Assembly: GCA_977020255.1 (NCBI GenBank)
Contig: CDROCS010000582.1
Span: forward strand, 62,001 to 126,000
Length of the DNA stretch: 64,000 nt
Reading direction: 5' to 3'
Source: Obrimoposthia wandeli
Lineage: Eukaryota
In this document: positions 31,843 through 64,000 of the stretch, piece by piece
How positions within the stretch are numbered: the first letter of the stretch is position 1
How the letters are laid out: every line of letters starts with the position of its first letter
Position numbers and translations under genes: made by a program
The notes under the pieces: model-generated
Seen by the model: the letters and a program-made list of their open reading frames with translations, nothing else
Databases searched by the model: none
What the model was told of the DNA's origin: nothing

Positions 31843-31995
31843 AATATATATTTTATTTATTTATCCATTCTATAGTATTGAATTGAGAATTGTTTTTTTA
31901 AATAAGGAATACTATAAGAGTAGGGTGATATGATCGGTAATTGTTATTGAGGTAAATTATTTGTATGTTTAAATTTTATTGATGTTTTTTTGCAG

Positions 31996-32896
31996 GAATC
32001 AATACAAGTAACTGAGGAGATGTGAGAAAAATTTCACCTTTCCTGCAGATAAAAATGAAGCGGGCATGGGTGCGGAAGACGAGGTGCTCTAAAAAGGTGA
32101 AATCTTGTCTGTTCAAACCTACCGAGGTATCGATGGAGCGGCAGGAAAAACTTCCTTATCCGATTATTGAGGTAAATATTAAAATTTTTAATACCATTTT
32201 TAAAATTTTATTAATGTTTTTTTGCAGGAACCAGTCCAGATAATTGAGGATACATGGGGAGAAATTTCTCCTTTCCCGCGGATACGAATGAAGCGAGAAG
32301 AGGTGCGGAAGACGAAGCGCTCCAGAAAATGTAGCACCGCAAAGCTCAATTCTTCTGAGGCGGAGATTGGCCGACAGGAGATTCTCCCATCTCCAGTGGA
32401 CGAAAGGCCAATTTTGTACGGGAGAATAGCAGTCTCTCCGATCGAGATTAGTCCGCCTCCCAGTCAACGACGTCTGCAGGAGATGGCACCGGCTTAATAA
32501 AGCATCTACAAAATTTTGGCTAGGGCTTGGGAGACTGATTCTCTTCTGCCAACAGCATCTACCAACCAGAACATGAAGAGGGCCTGGGATGAAGCTGGAT
32601 TGGACAAATGGCTAGCGGAACTAGAAACCCCGCAACCGACAGTGCTTCCAGATTCGCGAGGGCAGCAGGATGCGGTCTCACGTCAGCTTCAGTGTGAGAA
32701 GGAGGAGAAACCTAAGAAAGCTCCGCGGAAGAGGAAGGCTACAAAACTGACCACTTCTTCGTCGGGGCAATCTACATCAGCTGCACCTCTGCCCAAAAAT
32801 TTGCGGCAACTCCTTCCAAAACCTCAGGGAACGACAATTGCTGCACAGCAACCGGTGCAGCCGAAAAAGAAGCCAGGTCGACCAAAGAAAAATTAG
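31996..32896 (+). pseudogene. Decayed spliced gene for a basic, Pro/Lys/Arg-rich protein with a C-terminal AT-hook-like motif
   Basis: GT-AG introns at 31952-31995 (44 nt) and 32172-32227 (56 nt); duplicated ~176-bp exon; repeated (K/A)RAW motif; ends PKKKPGRPKK. Confidence 0.55.
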
Positions 32897-33474
32897 GGAG
32901 CCAGTCCCGCTTTCTCCTATACCACTCAGTCGGAGAGATATCGATGAAGATGATCCCAATGATGACTTTGTGAAGTGTTATTGGAATAATATAATTCATA
33001 AAAATAATTTTACGTGTTTTGTTTTAATTAAATTTTTTTAAAATATTGAATTCAAAAATTAACTTAAAAATTTAATTTTTTTTACGAAATTTATAATAGT
33101 AAAATGCAATCATAAGTTATCGATTTATTAAAATATAAAAACTCATTTGATAAATAAAAATATATAACTTATTCGAATGTGATTGATTTAATTAGAAATA
33201 ATATAATTCTACATGTCGTTAAATTTCTGTACGTTAATTTCAAAAAGATAGGTTTAAAATTTATTTATATAGAAATGCAATGATTAGTTATAGATTTATT
33301 AAACTCTCATTTGATAAATAAATATATATCATTTAATTGAATGTGATTGGATTAAAGATATTTCAAATTTATATAAATAGGTTCAAATTTATTTACTTCT
33401 TCATAAATAAAAAAATGGAATTAACTAAAATGTAAAGTCTTGTGACGAAAATATAAGAAAACATCAGAAGAAAT

Positions 33475-47100: not shown

Positions 47101-50100
47101 GAGGTATATGGCGTGGCAATGAATATACTGGAAAGGGAGACATAATAGAGGAAATACACAATGAAAATGTGTTGGATAATGTTCAAAGGTGTAAAATAAT
47201 ACGTTGTGAAAAAAACAAAGATTTAAAGAGGTTTACTCAGTTAGTAGCAATTATCTGAATAAAGTTAACATGACATAGGAAGCTGTTATACCAGACGTTG
47301 CTAAAAATGTTACCCCGAATCTAGAGGTTTGAGATTCAAACCTAATAAAAATACAGGCAGATTCTATTGAAACAATGCTGAAATGAGCCCAATAAAGTAC
47401 AGAGTAAGAAGATACAAATGAAATAGTCCGAATGACAGATATGAGGATGAATAAACCAATTAGGTTTATACTAACATAAGCCAAGCCAAATAAATGGCCA
47501 AAAAGAAGTTGATATAAGTGAAAGTAAACATTAAATAATATGAAAGTATTTTCAAAACTGTACCATTCAGTGCAGTGCGCTTAGGAAACTGTCTGTAGAA
47601 AACCGATAGAAACTGGTAAAAGACAAAAAGTTATGTAATAAATGCTTAAAGAAAGGCCATTTGGGGAAAATATTGTAAGTGTCATGAATATGGATGTAGT
47701 CAAAAGCATCATTGGCCTGTAAAAATACGAACGAAATATCAAGACATTTTAGAAAAACAGAGTAATCTGATGGACCAGGCGCATTTGAAAGTTCAACAAA
47801 AAATGATGGTGAATATGAGAACCATTCTGATGATTACAAATGGAGAAAAGGATATGTAAATTAATGCTTAATTGATTGATGCCAGCACTACTAGTCTCTG
47901 TGTCAGATTGTTTGAGATTCTACAAAATTAAAAGTAACATCCCAGCGAGTAATTATGAGAATATTGAAAGAAATGGAATGTAAAAAGATATATAATACAT
48001 CACAGTTTAAAATCAATAAAACTCAGGATAAACGATTTATCGTTAAAATTTCGTGGAAAAAATGATCAGAGGAAATTAAAAGTAAATGAGGAAATGGCCA
48101 TGAAAAGATTACAAAGTTTACAAAAAAGGTTGACTAAAAATAAACAAATAAAAGAGGAACATGAAAAGAGACATCGGGAAAAGTTAAAAAAAACAAGTAT
48201 ATTCGATTATTGAGCAAGGGGAACCGACAAATTACTCATTCGTATCTACTACATTTTCCTATAATACTATAATACAAGATTCAATTGCTTTTGACGCAGC
48301 AGGAAAATGATTGACTGACATAATTCATTGCATTGTTGGTCAAAGTTACAAAGTGACATGACTAAGATACTTATAAGATTCAGAGAAAAGAGGATTACGG
48401 TGGTATGTGATATATCAGATATGTATCATCTGGTAAAAGTTTTAAAAAAAATCAACCGTGGTTGAGATTAATGCGAGTCAGAAAAATAACAGTGTCATGG
48501 CTTATGAGTATGAAAGATTGGTATTTGCCATAAATGCTTCTCCATTTTGGCACAGTTAGTGATGCATGAACAGGAATATCCAGCAAGCGCAAAACCCATA
48601 TTGGACTCTACGAATATGGACGATACATTGTTTTCAGTAAATACAGAAGTAAAATAGCTGTAATAAAAATTCAGAATCGAAGAAGATCTGGATAGAAACA
48701 GAAATGCAAGCTAAAAAGTGGATACCGAACAGTAAATGATACGATTCCATTGTGCGAGGATATTGCAAATTAAAGATGAGATTAAAAAGATAAGAACGTC
48801 GGGAATAATATGGAATGTCGAAGATGACTATTTCATATTCAAGTCATATAATAAATTGTCAGAATATGATAAAATAAATTTTCTAAGAATCTATCCAACT
48901 ATTTTTGGTCACTTGAGATTTAGGAGTCCATTTATAATACGCTCCAAAGTTCTGATACAAAATATTTGGTTAGATGGAATGGATTGGGATGTTAGTTATT
49001 AAAGATGTAATGGAGAGAAATGTATTGTGGAAACAAAATATGATAATCGAGTAGTACCTGTGTTCTTATATAAATCATGTGACGCATTTGAGACTCTAGT
49101 CTATGTCAGAAGTGTCCTCCAAGATGGAATTGATGTATTATCAATAATGGCAAAAGGTAGAGTAGCCTCATTGAAACCTCGGTATTGTAAGGCTAGTGTT
49201 GGTGGCATATTGTGATGATTTAAAGTTGGCCCAGATGCTCATAGACACGACGTTTTGGTCAGACTGTGAAAATGTTCTATGATGGGTCAATAAAAAACAG
49301 GGAGATTTTATAAACACTTTGTAGTAAATCTAATGGGGATCATTCAGAAACAAATCAATGGGGTATGGTATGTTCCAATAAAATAAAATCCTGTGTCGAG
49401 GATTGGAAACAGTCGAGCTCTTTGAGAGTAAATGTTTATGGATTGATGGTCTGAATTCTTAGTTAAAACACCAAAAATGGGTCAAAAAGTCCACAATTTA
49501 ATGAACGAGATAGCAACACGACTAAATGATATGGTAAGACCAATTTGTCATTTCTGTCGGTTGACTTAATATATGAACTGTTTTCTTGTAGTTTGGATTG
49601 GTACAACAGGACCCCGGGTGGTGGTTGCTTAGTTGTTGGCTTGGGTGAATTTGTGTTGTTTTGGTTGATGATTAGGTTTGATCATAGTAGATAATTATGT
49701 TAAATTATGAGTTGTTGCCAGTCAATGAATTTGAATATAATGATGATTTGTAGATTATTTGAGTTTGAAAGAAAGAAATGAGTTTCTGTCAATATAGTGT
49801 TATTATTTAAGGTCTATCAAATATTTCAGACAATATTTTTCCTATTAACCAAAGGATAATTAATGATGTTCTTGTCACCAGGCATCAAACTCTTTGTCAC
49901 CCCGTGGTCTACTGTGGTTCTACTGTCCTAAAACAACAGAAAACAGAGGTATTTTGTGTTACGTCCTTGTTGGCTTAACATAAAGTTACCCATTTTCAAA
50001 TCTACACAAATTATGAACATGGTATTACAAGCTCTTCAGAACAAAATTGATGTTAGTATACTCTTCTTTCATTTTACAGAATGTTCTTTGGGATTGAACC

Positions 50101-53918: not shown

Positions 53919-56900
53919 TGTTGTATAGTGATAATAATAATAATAATAGTAATAATAGTTATAGTAGTAATAATATAACAATAACAAAAATAATAATAAT
54001 AATAATAGTAATAATAGTTATAGTAGTAATAATATAACAATAACAAAAATAGTAGTAATCATAATAATAATATATTAATTAGATAATTAGTCTAATTAAC
54101 ATAATTGATATTGATCGAATCGGAAAGCTACTTTGTCGCAACAATTGATATTATGTTACTGTTTGAATTTAAATGGATTGCCAAGTGGACCTTACTTAGT
54201 GATAGTGGATGATTTGGGGCTGTACAATTTTATTGGAATAAAGTCCCATATTTACTATTTGATATTGCGCCGAGCAGTAATAACTGACTAATTACCCTCA
54301 TTGAGTTACAATAACTGGGACGAGTTACCGAGGATATCAGAAGCGAGGACCCAATTGTATTATTATTATTATTATTATCGCTGTTATTATAATATTGTTA
54401 TCATAAAATTGTTACATTATTATTACTAGTGCCATGAGTTTAAGTGCCATAAATATCTATTAGTTTCAGCGCTTTTAAGGCTGCGCCTAAGGTTAAAATT
54501 TTATTTAAATTAGACAAAGTACCTTTAATTTCTCTATTACTGTTAGATTAATATTTATTATTTTCAGCACTTCAAAGGCTGCGACTAAGGTTTTAAACGT
54601 ATAATTATACGTAGTACCTTGCGTTCATAAAGGTTAATATTCATAAACCTCGCAAGAATTGCTTCCATTCCTCTAGAGGAGATCGCTAGATATCAAACTC
54701 GAAAATCAATAGAAGGATAATTCCAGTCAACAACAGCCGACACGCTGCCGCAAGCCGGTAACAATAACATCCTTGCCATAACAGAAACTGCACAACAGCC
54801 CACTGAAGAAGATAATGCAGCCATTTTTTACAATGACTCCGGTGGCTGGCAAGAACTCAGAAGACAGAAGGAAAGGTACAAGCAGCCAAATCAACCAAGC
54901 AATTTTTTTTTTCAAATTTTCAGATGCTAACAGATTATGAAGATGTCGATTTTGATGGCCGAATGCACACTATGGCAAGGGTTCGGTACAGATCAGTCAC
55001 ATCACCCTCTACCTACCATCTACAGATTCCTTATGAAATGTCTGAAATAATAATCCAGTAGTATATGTATCAAGAAATTTACTTGATGTGGAAATCCGAT
55101 ATTCTCAGATTGAGAAGGAATGCCTAGCTGCGTTATTCGGAGTGGAACAATTAAAGATGTATCTAATAGTGAGGAAATTTACTTTATCGACTGATAATAT
55201 GCCACTCATATCTTGATTTACGAAGCCAATCGACAAGTCGAATACTAGAATACAAAGATGGCTTTTACGTGTGCAAGAGTATACATGCGATATGCGACAC
55301 ATACCAGGTAGATTAAATGACATTGCAGATAATTTATCACGACTTCCAGTATCATTAAATGAAAGATCGTTGAAAGAAGATGATGCAAGTATGATATTTT
55401 TAGTTATGAACCATAGTTTAGTAGCTATTGATGATATTAAAATAGCAAATACAGAATATGACTTGTTTAAAGAACTAAAAGTAACATGTACTACACTAGA
55501 TAAGAGTAAATATAAAGCTATAAGGAGTAATTTAACATTCGAAAACAATTTAATTGAATTTGATGATCGACTTTGCATACCAGTGTCACTAAGAAAACGA
55601 GTATTGGAGACAGGACATAGTGGTCATCTGGGAATTATAAAGACGACTGAAGTGATTAAGAGTGTTATTGTTGGTAGCCCATGATGGGTGAAGAGATTAA
55701 AGATTGGGTAAATCGTTGCAATGTATGTCAGCATTTTGCTATGGACCAGCCAGCACCACTTAAAGTAAATGAACCAATGTTACATGAAGTGTCGGATACA
55801 ATATTCTTAGATTTTCTCGGTCCTTCAGAGCGTTTAAAATTAGTATAATTTCTAAGTATAATTGATTGGTACTCAAGGTTTCCTTTTCTGTTTAAAGTCA
55901 GGAATTCAAATGCAAAGAGTATTATTCATAGTTTGAATCAGTTATTTGCATTATGTGGTATGCCAAAACGAATAGTAACAGACAATGGCTCATCATTTAG
56001 AAGTGAAGAATTAGCAGAGTACCTGAAAAAGTTAGGCATTAAACATACATTCTCTAGTGTGTACTCTCCACAATCAAATGGAATAATTGAGAGATTTCAT
56101 GGTACTATCAAATCAAGAATGGATAAACTATTGTTTGACGGATATGTGTAGATGATGTTGTCCAACAAGCTCTTTTTGATATCAGATCGACCACTGCGGC
56201 TAAGACAGGCAAAACGGAGTTTTGTTTATTTTATGGGTGAGAGATGAGCAACAATTTTCATAAATTTAATGAACACAACCATATTAATGCTAAAGTCAGA
56301 AATTACGAGACGGAATATATGAAAAAGAGAAGCACATGTAAAGATTATATATCAGGTGAAAAAGTAGTGGTGACATTCAAGAAGCAACATAAATCATTAC
56401 ATGGTGTAAGTATGAAGATAATTAGAAATTACTCTTGGTTGATATTATTATATGATAGTAATAGAGAGATTGTGGTTAATCAGCATTTAATTCATAAATT
56501 AAATAGTTAAACTTAATTTACTGTTCTTGTTTATCAGCTGAATAATAAAAGTAAGCATTATAATTGGTATATATTGATGATACGTGGAATAATGAAAGTA
56601 CACATATTAACACTTAATAATCAATAGTAATGTGATTTAAATTCAATAAACTACACAATTAAAATAAAGTTGTCGGGAGATGTTGTATGGTGATAATAAT
56701 AATAATAGTAATAATAGTGATAGTAGTAATAATAGTAATAATAGTGATAGTAGTAATAATAGTAACAATAATAGTAGTAATCATAATAATAATATGTTAA
56801 TTAGATAATTAGTCTGTTTAACATAATTGATATTGATCGAATCTGAAAGCTACTTAGTAGCAACAATTGATATTATGTTACTGTTTGAATTTAAATGGAT

Positions 56901-57041: not shown

Positions 57042-58854
57042 ATAGTATATGAAATATGAAAAGTAATTTAAAAATGACTATCAATGTAGCGAATGATTTT
57101 AAATTAATTTTAACATGGATATTTTAAGACCCATTTACTTGGTACAGTTTTAATTGAATATTTTCAAAGTGTATTTATGCTTCTAAGATATAATATTCAG
57201 TGTATATCTTTCAAAGTTCAAATCTTTCATTATTATTATAGTCATTTCATTTTTTACCGAAAAATAATACTTTTTTGTTAGATAAACTAACATATAAACA
57301 GCTTTATTCATTGTGACAGTCTTTTATGGATGCCAATCTAATCTTATTTGAGGAAGTGCCACCATTTGAACAAATATTTTAAAATCATTATGATAAAGAT
57401 ATTGAAGGCAAAGTTGAAGTGCAAGATATTCCAAACGACCAGTGATGGTGACGAAGGACATATATCAATTGATGAAGAATTAGAAGATGATCAGTTAATA
57501 TTTATGCATGTTATCAATGAAGAAATTAGCAACGAGGATGAAAACATCAAAAGTCGTATTTCTTCAGACCTGAGCGGCCTATAATTAATATAATGGAATA
57601 CAAGTAAACATGAATATTGTGTATGTAATTATGTAAATCAATAATAGAGTAAACACAAAAATGTCGTTTGGCTGCTTCTTGATGTTTATTGGAGAAGCAA
57701 CCAATGGAATACATTTATATAAAAATCTGCAAGGTTACTGCCTAATATCTGAATTCAAACGTAATGTATACAAACTACCATAGAAAATAGAAAGAAGTGA
57801 CTCAAGTGTAATAAATCTGAATTCAGTTCATTTGAAAAAGTTAGGTTGATTAGATACGGCCATCCCGTTTTCAGAGCACGATGAGTATTCATAGATTTTA
57901 TCATTTGCGTACAGCCCTGCATTTTAATGATCCTCGAAGAAGGAATATAAATAATTCATTGTCTCCAATTCATAATGTGTATAAATGGATTCGATTAAAG
58001 CTCAGTTAATTCAAGACTATAAAAGAAAATCTGTGGATGTAACGTTGATAAAAAATTGTAATATTTTAAGGACCCATACAGCGTTGTCAATAAATTTTAA
58101 GTAAGCCAGGAATGTTTGGTAGTAAATATTTATGATTGTGCAAAATATCTACTGATTTCTATCTCGATGGCCTGGTTTATATCAGTCAAAGTCGGTAAGT
58201 TAAGATATTTTTGACCAATATTATGATGAAATTACTTACTTATTATCTGGACAAAGCTATAATGTTGTTGGTGACTATTGACTTTTCAAATTCAAGTTTT
58301 ACACTTAATTAATTTGCCAGGTGATTAAATCTAATATTAAAAGTAAATAATGATTAAATTACTTTAAACAAAACTTATTGTAGCAGCTGGCAACTATGAA
58401 CTTTCAAGAACGCATGAAAACTTTCTTTGTTAAAATTAAAAAAAAAAAAATCTTTACGAAATTGAGAGAAAATATAAGTAGGTAGATGTGTCCGGTCTAA
58501 TCCACACTCCCCCTCCCCCCTACTGTCCTTTAAAACCGTGCATGTGTGTGGAGTGAAATTTCGTGCAGGTGTGTAGAAAAAATTTCTACTCCCCCTCCCA
58601 AAAAATCAAAAAAATAATTAACTCCATATAACACCCTTTAAATTTAAAAATCTCATAATGCTCCCAAAAATTTGATTAAGGTCCTGAGAGGCCGTAAAAT
58701 TGGCCAAAGCGTGCCCTCCGGGCCCGTGGTGGATCAACGAGTAATACATACAGCAACATCGGCAGCATCACCAATATCAGCAACTTCAACCTCAGCTGCG
58801 ATTGTCTCAACTATTAATATAAATAGTTGTCTTCCCGTTTAATTAGGGGGAGGT

Positions 58855-61800
58855 TTGTCACCGACAAACGGAAGAAAGAGGCGAGGCCAATTTCTTAATA
58901 AGGTCCCACCCAAAAAACGTAGAGAAAACGGTGCTACTATAGAGTATCACCTAAATAATAAATATGTTATAGTTAAGGTGTCATTAGGAAATGAAATTTT
59001 ATTAAACGTAGGTGTAGATTCAAATATTGAAAATCTTTTAAAATCAGAAGTGACTAAATTAGGACAGGCTAAGGTTCAATTTTGCGCAACAGTGCAGTTT
59101 AAAAATGTCAATGAGGAAACTAAAACTTGGGTAATTTCCCATAAAGCAACTGTTTTTTTATGATAATTTTGTAACTGAAATTGGAAGAAACCTGGATGAA
59201 AAAATTGCTAATTATAGCGAGTTAAGTAGTGGATGGACTCTAGTTAGAATTCACGATGTTAGCTTTGTTCTAACAAAGTTCAGACATGATATATCTTTCG
59301 GGGAGTTCATACATTCCTTCACCTAGATCTCTTCAACTTTCACGTTCCATTGTTAACGTACAAAACAGTGATAACCTTTGCTTTCTGTATAGCGTGTTGG
59401 CCATCCTCAAAAGGGATGTAATTACTGAGCATAGAGAGCGTGTCAGTAAATATACCCTTTTTTTAAATGAATTGCAGTATCATGGAATAGATTTTCCTGT
59501 TAAATTAACTACGATATCAAGATTTGAACATCTTAATAACTTGAGTATTAATGTATTCAAATATAATACTGATATCCCAGTTAATGTAACAGATGAAGAA
59601 ATTTTTAAAAATCCTTTTGTAGATGTAATTTATAGGAGCAAAAATGAGGGGACTCAGGTCAACTTAATTTTGCTCGAACATAATAAAAATTCCATTATGC
59701 TGCAATTCCCAATTTAGATCGTCTTATAAATTTAGATAATGGAGCCTTACCGGTTAGGATAAGATGTAAGTGGTGTCATAGATGTTTGCATGGGTTCCGA
59801 TCCGAGCTCTCTTACAGCAAACATCTAACATTATGTTCACTGAATCCTGATGACAATACGTTATACACCATGCCTAAGGATAAGGATTTAAAATTCAGGG
59901 ATTGGGCAAAATGCATACCCGTGGAATTCAGGGTGTATGCAGATTTTGAGTCAATTTTAGCATTGCACAACCAGTATGAGAGTATTCACCTACCGGCTTC
60001 GGCAGGACTACTATTCTTAGGCCCCAATATTACCCAGTATCATAAATTTTCCGGTCCAAATTGTATTTTAAATTTTATGTTTAAATTAGAGGAATTAGGA
60101 ACAACAATCGTCAAACTGTGGTATGATCTCAATGCTCATCAAGCAATGATCATGACAGGCATAGACTGGGTTAATTTTATTTTCTTGTAGATTATGTTAT
60201 TTGTGTGGAACCCAGTCTAAGTTAGTCAGAGATCACGATCATGTTACGGGGCGATACTTGGGAGCGGCGAGCAACCTTTGTAACCTTGGCCGTCGTCTCC
60301 CTAAAAAACCACGCATTCCCATCGTGTTTCATAACCTCAAAGGATATGATTTGCATCATATACTTAAATACGCGTTGGGTACATTAAGCTCTTGGGAAAT
60401 TTCATGTATACCTCAAACTTCAGAGAAATATTTATCTTTAACTGCATATACTGAATTCTGCAGTTTAAGATTCATAGATTCTCTGCAGTTTTTGAGTGGT
60501 TCTTTAAAAAATTTAACGGCATCTTTAAATGCATGGCCAATTACACAGTCAGTGTTCCCAGCTTCGGTTAACGATAAGGGGATTTTTCCGTATAAATTTG
60601 CGAAAACATTTGCAGTTTTAGAAAATACAACTGAAATCCCACCCATAACTGAATTTGAGGGTGTAAGTCTTCAAGACTATAATGAGGCCCGTACATTTTG
60701 GGTGAATAATTGTCGAAATCTTCTCGAATATATGCTTTATTATATGAAGTTAGACATTTATCTTTTAGCTGATGTTTTTGAGTCCTTTCGTGTAAAGTCT
60801 TTAGCAGAAGATGGGCTAGATCCCATGCATTTCTTTAGTTTACCTGGTCTTTCATGGGCAACAGCAATAAAAACTCTTAAAATTAATATCGAGTTACTGC
60901 AAGATCCCGCGATGTATCAAATGTATGATTATGGTATACGCGGTGGAATGACTTTTGTCAACAAACATCATGTTGTAAAAAATCAATCCACGGAGATTCT
61001 GTACATCGATATTAATAATTTGTATGGGTGGGCGCTTACTCAACCTCTACCTCATGCCAACTTTAAGTGGGTTTATGATGTGGATCAATTGAATAAGTTG
61101 ATGACAGATTTGGCTACTGTTGATACAGTTTCATCCGACGTCGGCTATTTGGTTGAGGTGGACATAAAAATCCCTCCAAATGTGCATGATAAATTAGATG
61201 ATCTTCCAGTAGCGCCTGTTCATCAATGCCCACCTAATTCAAAGGTTAAGAAATTATTGTTAACCCATGAAGACAAGTTGAATTATGTTGTGCATTGGCG
61301 GCTTCTTCAATTCTACTTAAAGTTGGGAGCGAAAGTTACTCGAATTCATCGTGATATAAGCTTCAGTCAAAACTTTGTGTTTAAAGACTATATTGAGAAG
61401 AATTCAAGAAAACGTAATTTGGCCACTAGCAAATTCGATCGAGATTTTTACAAGTTAAAAAGTAATAGTCTCTTTGGAAAAACTGTAGAGGACTTGCGGA
61501 AACGTATTTGTCTACGGTTTTGCAATGATGAGCGTAAACTAATAACATATACTAGCAAGTACAACTTCAAGCGTAGTTTTACAATTGCAGATGACTTGGT
61601 AGCAGTGTTATTAGGAAAACAGAGTATTTGTCTCGATCGACCGAGTTATATAGGTCAAACGGTTTTAGACATTTCTAAACTCAGAATGTATGAGCTTCAA
61701 TACATAGAATTGGAGAAATACCGACAAGAATTTAATTGTGAGATCAAAATCGCGGCAGGGGACACTGACTCTTTCTTTTTAGAATGTAGGAATGTTAGTT

Positions 61801-62228
61801 TAAATAATCAATTATTACCAGCAATGTTTAGGGACAACTTACTAGATACCCATAAATATCCCGCTAACCATCCTCTACACTCTATGAGTTTAAGGGACAT
61901 TATCGGGAAATTTAAGGATGAAAGCGAGGGACAGGTTTCGTATGATGATTGTATTTTCCTACGCCCTAAATGCTACAGTTTACATGCATCTAATAATACA
62001 TGTTCAATGAGAGCAAAGGGTGTGGGAAGAAACAATCTTACACATGAGGCCTACCGGAAAGTTTATGATACTGGGTGTATTGAAAGCGTTGAGCAAACTA
62101 GATTTATTTCAAGAGCCCATCAACTGTATTCCCATAAATCAACCAAAATCGCTTTGAGTAGTAATGACGACAAGTGCTTTTGGGTAGAAAAGAACGCTAG
62201 CCTGGCTTATGGACACTTCAGAATTTAA
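58855..62228 (+). CDS. polB: Polinton D pPolB (~1120 aa if four slippage frameshifts are corrected)
   Basis: SSGW, NSDNLCFLYSVL, DHDHVTGRYLG, FHNLKGYD, RFIDS, KGIFPY, DIYLLADVF, IRGG, YIDINNLYG, KLKSNSLFGK, GDTDS, RAKG. Confidence 0.96.
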
Positions 62229-62502: not shown

Positions 62503-62883
62503 CTAATTGTTTTGCAACGATAACCATAAAATACATAAATGTCCACAGTTTCTCGTCGCATGATCCTGATATTGTATCTTGTTGTAAAATACTCTTCTTC
62601 GTCCTTTTTGAATAGTTGAAACAAGTTTGTGTGGATAATACATTGCAAGTGGATCAAATACATGTATTGTCCACTCTCTAACATAAATAGCTATCCAATG
62701 TTCTCCTGGTAAATTCGAAGTATGAGTATTGATAATGTAACCTCCATATTGAAAAAATGGAATCATATCAATAGGATAAACTCCATTGAATTTATCACCC
62801 AGGACCTTCTCTGCTGATTCTTTTACTTGTTTTGAACTAAATAAAAATTAATAAATATAAATTTAAAAAATGTCTTACTTCAT
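62503..62883 (-). CDS. Polinton D adenain-like cysteine protease, two exons (62883-62879, 62836-62503), 112 aa
   Basis: ATG AA|GTAAGA..TTTATTTAG|T TCA gives MNSKQVKE...GVYPIDMIP...NLPGEHWIA..VFDPLA..QYQDHATRNCGHLC (His, Asp, Gln and Cys of the adenain fold). Confidence 0.9.
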
Positions 62884-62884
62884 T

Positions 62885-64000
62885 CTATAATATGACAGTT
62901 CTGTTTTTATTGATTTGTATTTCGGAATCAAACACTTCGAAAATAAGCACCGTTGTAGGATATGTTAAAGCTGCATTGAACTTAATTTCTAGACGTAAAT
63001 TTCCATCCTTTGGTAGTTGGCATTGGTTTATATCAAAGTCTGGTGCCAAAACAAATGTGAAGAACGTGCAGCTACTTTTAAACTCAGTGAAAGAAATACC
63101 ATTGTTTATATTTTTATCTAGTTGACCCAAATTCCGAATAATAGATTGGGTATAAGCCAAAGCATAAGCGTCACCTTCGAAATCTGTTTTATATGTTTCG
63201 CGATAATCAGTATTTCTTGAAAGTGTCACTGAACCTACATTAAGATTGTCAAATTGAGTTGCATCTGTCGTATAATTTCCTAGAAACTTTGCAGTTTTTT
63301 GAAAAGAAATTAAAATGAATTTCGGTAATCTTACATCACCAAAAATTTGATCCTTATTAAAAGCTTGTGTACCCGTACCTAAAGAATAAGATATAAGTTT
63401 AGTTTCTCTAATAGGATAACAAGCATTGTTTTTTCCATTCCTATATTATGTGCCATTAAAACTGATTGCTCGGTTTTAACTCTTCGAACATACAATTTTG
63501 CATCCAAAATATCAAGTCTAGGTTTTAGAATGTCCGTGCTTATCAAAGAAAAATTCCATTTATTACGTTTCAAACGAAGATGTACATTAACACCGGGAAT
63601 TAAATATTTCGGTTGTTCAAAGAAATTCAATCTCAAAGACCCACACATTTCGTAAGCTTTAGAACCTGCAATCCATTCTTTGCGAGTTGCATCAGTTTTA
63701 TCATAACCAATGGTTGCCAAATTAGTATTTTGAGTATCAGTACTATAATTCAAAAGACTTTCAATCAAAGCTTTATGAGCATAGGAAGAATTTCCACCTT
63801 CAATTTTGACATTATTAAGAGTAACAATGGCATCATTAAATAAAGAATTAAATAGATAATTTATAGGTGTTACATCGGCATTTTCATCTAAATTAGTACC
63901 ATCCCGATTTAATACTTTTATTTGAACATAAAGCAAAGTATCATTCAAATCTAAATACTCGCTATTGGAACCATTAATATTAAATTCTAAATCGGTTAAA
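62885..64000 (-). CDS. Polinton D major capsid protein (5' end beyond the window; one homopolymer frameshift near 63430)
   Basis: YLDLNDTLLY, SYAHKALIESLLNYS, QPKYLIPGV, FTFVLAPDFD, GNLRLEIKF, VFDSEIQINKNRTV. Confidence 0.93.

Follow-up and report, generated by a model that had tools for sequence, protein, structure and literature searches.

A probable spliceosomal mini-intron in the protease gene of a Polinton/Maverick clade in Obrimoposthia wandeli

In adenoviruses, a very small exon located further upstream supplies the first codons of the E2B polymerase and pTP mRNAs, and the protease reading frame is uninterrupted and reached via the choice of a 3' splice site from a distant leader. Polinton genes, as the first-pass annotation of the DNA studied here had noted, are usually described as intronless, and the available text of two studies says so: in vertebrate Mavericks the genes of intact elements lack introns (Barreat & Katzourakis 2021, PMC8097293), and in nematode Mavericks the core genes are intronless and introns occur only in cargo genes (Widen et al., 10.1101/2022.07.12.499685). 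As far as the available text of the respective papers goes, dinoflagellate Polinton-like proviruses carry introners, mostly acquired after integration (Gozashti et al. 2025, PMC12166617), and cryptophyte PLVs carry self-splicing group I introns, 309-376 nt long, in a small gene without annotation (PMC12220804).

Here we describe a very probable spliceosomal intron in the protease gene of Polinton/Maverick elements of Obrimoposthia wandeli. The window, that is, the whole stretch of DNA that was analyzed, comprises 64,000 nucleotides at about 30% GC, from a genome of 1.35 Gb.

Elements and protease genes in the window

The window contains copies of two diverged elements, D and B, both of them decayed insertions. 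Element D is a Polinton/Maverick. It encodes a protein-primed B polymerase (58843-62228, plus strand; PF03175 at 60165-62225, E 3.7e-30), and a further locus that continues it (L061) encodes an rve integrase (PF00665, E 2.8e-13) and an A32/FtsK-like packaging ATPase (PF04665, E 5.8e-7). A profile built from 18 protease homologues matches the adenovirus protease (1avp, E 6e-6, starting from adenain residue 7) and ASFV pS273R (E 3e-4); the single D protease sequence had no match in Pfam. The major capsid protein gene is present with its 3' part (62885-64000, minus strand) in two frames, with a break near 63379-63445, and the polymerase gene of this copy likewise runs in several frames. No match to the capsid protein was found in Pfam or among PDB sequences. 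Its atlas neighbours lie at 0.97, and one set of them carries PF21738 (DJR-like) on 15% of its members, with a recognition value below threshold. The position and size of the gene fit a major capsid protein, and there are weak signs of a double jelly-roll fold. Terminal inverted repeats are present: those of B copies are roughly 1-1.2 kb long, and those of one 18.6-kb D copy measure 1,154 bp at 97.6% identity; both B copies examined have AGT ends and a 6-bp target site duplication.

On the minus strand of element D, the capsid stop codon (62887-62885) is followed by one base, an ATG (62883-62881) and two further bases, which complete the coding part of exon 1 (62883-62879). A 42-nt stretch comes next (62878-62837; GTAAGA...TTTATTTAG), bounded by GT and AG and in phase 2, and exon 2 extends from 62836 to a stop at 62503, with one base and then 110 open codons of the adenain-like cysteine protease. 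Judged from the sequence and the sibling copies, this stretch is very probably a true spliceosomal intron. It has a GTRAG-like donor and a YAG acceptor behind a T-rich tract, as expected of a U2-type intron; its excision restores the conserved frame, and its position is kept while its interior diverges. These coordinates and this layout agree with the first-pass annotation, which had also given AA as the two bases after the ATG; this holds for the copy in the window, but GA is found in 46 of 54 D loci.

The same annotation had seen the layout again in element B, with the ATG overlapping the capsid stop and a decayed donor, and we find it so. On the minus strand, the ATG (14138-14136, within an exon 1 coding part of 14138-14134) overlaps the capsid TGA, the homologous 39-nt stretch lies at 14133-14095 with a non-canonical donor, and exon 2 (14094-13762) is decayed, with stop codons, and is 53% identical to the D protease over residues 31-108. 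The length of 39 nt is that of this copy; 38 nt is found in 22 of 25 B siblings.

Some further features of these elements and their surroundings were recorded. A conserved gene with an F-I-D-x-E motif, presumably nuclease-like, comes after the protease gene in B and in most of the related elements (window 13716 onward, minus strand; L116 527-1030) and lies on the polymerase side in D (L063 9251-8715); it had no match in Pfam. In many cases, D copies form closely spaced inverted pairs or lie inside B copies (the D copy of the window together with L062/L063 on C582, and on C969, C4755 and C4557), and on contig C88 five B protease units follow one another at intervals of about 1.8 kb. D and B have at least 7,023 and 2,322 protease starts, respectively; if many of these belong to almost complete copies (18.6 and 13 kb), the two families would make up a large share of the genome. 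Decayed LTR-retrotransposon remains lie at 55050-56510 (plus strand) and 48270-49690 of the window, with an integrase zinc-binding match and, by eye, RNase H/integrase-like and Pao-like frames.

Conservation and probable inheritance of the intron

The protease 5' ends of sibling copies and relatives were aligned, and the GT..AG boundaries proved to be conserved. The sibling sample consisted of 60 D loci, taken as the best genome matches, and 30 B loci. ATG-NN-GT..AG was found at the anchor in 54 of the D loci (42 nt in 48, 41 nt in five and 36 nt in one), and the other six have copy-specific damage of the ATG, donor or acceptor. In family B, 25 loci have the layout (38 nt in 22, 39 nt in three), the misses including the copy in the window; in some B copies the exon-2 frame is open through the intron, which speaks against splicing. 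The donor is GTAAGA in 53/54 D loci and GTAAGC in 24/25 B loci. Thus, the sample did not yield the intact siblings, equipped with an in-frame ATG but lacking splice sites, that would have refuted the intron. Genome-wide, exact patterns gave 7,023 matches for family D and 2,322 for family B, with none for the reversed controls; all 100 listed matches per pattern stand in protease context, by design of the patterns. A D junction without the intron had no match at up to one mismatch, versus the 7,023 with it. Searches of the genome for further families with two other proteases (P0001 and that of L118) returned, as top matches, D (30/30 loci read) or sequences that are B- or D-like by frame length.

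Outside this genome, the layout was present in 10 of 47 metagenome loci (L114-L121, L123 and L126), with introns of 37-43 nt and proteins 43-55% identical to that of D. All of the other 37 have an in-frame Met at a distance of 17-26 codons ahead of the conserved Gly, whereas none of these ten does; two of the 37 (L158 and L160) were assigned to the intronless group from one of two comparisons only. The layout exceeds chance: it occurs at 0.45-0.63% of positions when random anchors are taken in the window, and at 0.2-1.7% in four metagenome loci. A scan of viral contigs for the intron pattern yielded 10 pattern matches and no relatives, and a word-index protein search yielded one match.

Across nine lineages, the ATG, donor, acceptor and phase are kept, while the length varies between 37 and 43 nt and covers all three classes modulo 3. 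Donors across the intron loci are GTAAGA, GTAAGC, GTAAGT, GTAATT or GTGAGT, and acceptors are TTAG, ACAG and, in two cases, TAAG. Intron interiors are 0.59 identical, against 0.57 when shuffled, and exon DNA is 0.66 identical, against 0.48 (36 pairs from the nine lineages).

In a protease tree of 49 rows, the 12 intron rows fall on one side of a branch with support of 94/91, recovered in 92% of bootstrap trees; the value of 94 is just below the strong threshold. In a capsid tree that kept 36 of 44 rows (at least 110 aa), the 10 intron rows stand on one side of a branch with 100/100 support, nested among intronless rows; both trees were midpoint-rooted. A single gain followed by inheritance would be the simplest reading of this clade among 37 intronless relatives. 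The comparison of siblings, metagenome loci and trees thus lends good support to the earlier proposal that the position is common to D and B and inherited. As the ATG lies at or beside the capsid stop in both the intron and the intronless group, the intron appears to have entered an existing gene junction.

Splicing, the start of the protease and alternative readings

We propose a single gain of a U2-type GT-AG mini-intron, inserted behind the second base of protease codon 2 when the common ancestor of a Polinton/Maverick clade existed, and its later inheritance by families D and B and by related elements elsewhere. The element would be transcribed in the host nucleus, and the host spliceosome would excise the 37-43-nt intron, joining the ATG and two bases to exon 2 and so producing the usual M-x-S/T-x-x-I/V start of an adenain-like maturation protease. 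The available sequences make it likely that this is an ordinary phase-2 mini-intron whose removal is probably constitutive. The sequences show the layout, its pattern of conservation, the reading frame and the single clade; from these we infer splicing in vivo, its constitutive mode and a transcript start at a TATA-like box in the capsid 3' end.

The predicted start fits the protease family. The spliced Met stands 19 residues ahead of the conserved Gly in all intron loci but L123 (17); among the 145 homologues with an initial Met and this Gly (149 rows were aligned, two long proteins being left out), a spacing of exactly 19 is the commonest (27/145), and 91/145 fall within 17-21. Three columns of exon 2 are conserved in the aligned homologues (His 149/149, Asp 145/149, Cys 141/149). 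The first-pass annotation had held that the D protease has no in-frame ATG. This is the case for typical B copies, with no Met at all in exon 2 (L053), but not for D, whose exon 2 encodes a Met at index 23 and another at index 64. The internal ATG of D is too far downstream: the Met at index 23 falls after the conserved G-V-Y-P-x-D strand, and in L119, as in D, the internal Met is placed just past the conserved N-terminal strand. In seven of nine listed intron loci, the first exon-2 Met is absent or beyond the catalytic His. Several close homologues in the databases have an internal Met as their first residue, or open with a run rich in F, L, I and Y resembling translated intron, a reading taken from the proteins and not from their DNA. 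ORF-based annotation would thus truncate these proteases or translate the intron as protein (P0001-P0006, P0013, P0014).

The first-pass annotation had gone further and suggested that the intron gates protease expression. In that reading, which we consider improbable, transcripts would normally keep the intron and lose it only late, so that protease is made only at capsid assembly. Retention would indeed switch the protease off fully, as unspliced reading from the ATG ends after two codons in 12/12 loci; moreover, the intron is kept across a deep clade, with the absence of precise loss among D copies noted above. However, this stop is a by-product of any phase-2 GTAA or GTGA donor, and since any phase-2 GTRA donor yields it, it gives no hint of a purpose-built switch. 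The donors are canonical and consensus-like in both families, no conserved element was found in the intron interiors across the nine lineages, the fold of the intron region is not unusual (z 0.49), and other genes of the element carry similar introns. Nor does the absence of loss call for selection, because DNA-replicating elements would rarely pass via cDNA. The gate thus finds no support in these data, and constitutive removal is the likelier reading.

A second alternative, which we regard as quite unlikely, is that the acceptor serves a distant leader, in the manner of the adenovirus late unit or by spliced-leader trans-splicing, and that the local ATG-NN-GT is secondary. T-rich acceptor-like tracts do occur ahead of other ORFs of these elements, and the adenovirus protease mRNA is made through 3' splice-site choice. 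Against this, the ATG lies exactly 5 nt before the donor in 12/12 loci, and it is not part of the donor consensus. The flatworm-type spliced leader ends in AUG; such a leader was rejected for its wrong phase, as at a phase-2 acceptor it would be out of frame and meet a stop after 13 codons in D.

That there is no intron at all, and that an AT-rich spacer precedes a protease made from an internal or non-AUG start or as a capsid-protease fusion ("Hexain"), is very hard to credit, even though the available text of Buck et al. (10.1101/2024.03.25.586562) predicts such fusions in some adintoviruses, D has its internal Met, and two metagenome intron loci have an in-frame upstream ATG in open frame (L117 at -29, L123 at -42): an internal start would cut off the helix and strand matched to adenain from its residue 7 onward, typical B copies offer no Met, and a spacer would not hold ATG-NN-GT..AG-N in register. 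The frameshift fusion was rejected on its own account because the relative frames vary: capsid stops lie at -4, +1, -6, -5, -4, -7, -2, -5 and -45 from the ATG, thus in all three frames, and in 8/9 lineages a stop in the protease frame occurs within 20 codons upstream of exon 2.

Returning to the locally spliced, ordinary mini-intron, a candidate promoter was noticed in front of exon 1. An AATAAA/ATAAA box lies in the last capsid codons of element D (62911-62906, minus strand), 27 nt before the ATG, and could be a TATA-like element. Comparison of L114-L159 indicated that the capsid 3' end keeps such a box at synonymous positions. At a first site (about -70 to -80), it is present in 19/24 intronless rows and 0/9 intron rows, and the Ile codons there are ATA in 19/22 against a background of 0.29; at a second site, 14 codons later (about -31 to -35), it is present in 6/9 intron rows and 0/24 intronless rows. 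It should be noted that these counts were made after dropping 13 near-duplicate loci, that the rows are related, so that p-values are not independent, and that the shift counts as one event. The boxes at -27 in D (48/53) and -16 in B (26/26) are both outside the second-site codons. A poly(A)-signal reading of the box was rejected, as it would lie some 70 nt inside the capsid frame in intronless relatives. If ATAAA is a TATA box, the protease would have its own promoter and exon 1 would measure only about 10-15 nt. It is conceivable, though we hold it to be rather doubtful, that the TATA-like box moved 14 codons downstream when the intron was gained, that the mRNA starts a few bases before the ATG, and that splicing of this cap-proximal micro-exon sets the ratio of protease to capsid.

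Further introns and comparison with known systems

The protease intron is one of several in these elements, as the polymerase leader and a gene of two metagenome loci have more. The polymerase leader of family D contains three more GT-AG introns (47, 75-79 and 40-47 nt), and in L100 the frame is open into a 609-codon ORF. The three upstream exons (L063 8418-7540, minus strand; L100 1693-2472, plus strand) seem to extend the polymerase considerably at its N terminus, adding a Cys/His motif and a stretch rich in Ser, Thr and Ala. A gene downstream of the protease region in L116 (1687-2243) and L114 (1580-1993) has three to five candidate GT-AG introns of 41-45 nt, and its long exon found no match in Pfam. 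Near one D copy, L095 (6976-9897, plus strand) holds an intronless 974-codon ORF resembling transportin-3/importin-13, possibly a retrocopy and unusual in an intron-rich host.

The first-pass annotation had likened the intron in size to the 35-44-nt introns of host genes in the window. Host mini-introns do exist. The acyltransferase gene (PF01553; 52400-50500, minus strand) has one of 35 nt (52174-52140) beside longer ones, and at modelled myosin loci 17/33 introns measure 34-58 nt, in a heuristic open-frame model made without a reference protein, in which long entries are unreliable and one duplicate locus was left out. Part of that comparison does not stand, as the pair of 44 and 56 nt at 31952-32227 is not in a host gene: it belongs to a high-copy repeat linked to family D. 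This is a GC-rich gene (31952-32900, plus strand) with a duplicated unit and two similar introns, with 5,585 candidates, situated at the polymerase-side end of D copies; its high copy number and this placement suggest an accessory gene of the element. The earlier idea of a long adaptation to the host spliceosome is supported by the saturated intron interiors and by the further introns in the same elements.

The literature searched had no description of a spliceosomal intron inherited within a Polinton protease gene, although mentions may exist in Repbase records or in the supplements of papers. The available text of Jeong et al. and Starrett et al. has nothing on core-gene introns, and that of PMC11296320, PMC11244446, PMC6431247 and 10.64898/2026.10.13.758929 has nothing on an intron in a Polinton protease. 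An inherited intron in a core virion gene runs against the standard intronless description of Polintons, and the clade has a clean intronless outgroup. One clade of Polintons would have gained a spliceosomal intron in a core virion gene and kept it while the elements multiplied (more than 9,000 pattern matches). The intron would bind the clade to transcription in the nucleus and to hosts able to splice introns this short, and may limit host jumps. In practice, filters that equate intact elements with intronless ORFs would throw out this clade, and the intron position offers a simple marker for it.

The elements share with vertebrate and nematode Mavericks, as these appear in the available text, the pPolB, the rve integrase, the A32-like ATPase, an adenain-like protease directly behind the major capsid gene, terminal inverted repeats and, as seen in the B copies, a 6-bp target duplication. 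They differ from them by the inherited GT-AG introns in their protease gene and polymerase leader; intronless core genes, which PMC8097293 gives as a descriptive trait and not as a formal criterion, are thus not what is seen here. With the dinoflagellate proviruses they share spliceosomal introns within Polinton-like elements. The dinoflagellate introns, as far as the available text goes, are young transposon insertions (PMC12166617), whereas here we find one old intron with a fixed position, a saturated interior and no repeat character that we could see. As in cryptophyte PLVs, the intron sits in a gene beside the major capsid gene, although theirs is a group I intron in the text available and ours is spliceosomal (PMC12220804). 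Finally, as in adenovirus, a homologous protease (1avp) is encoded behind a capsid gene. Unlike the adenovirus protease, which depends on a distant leader, the protease of these elements has its donor and its ATG close at hand.
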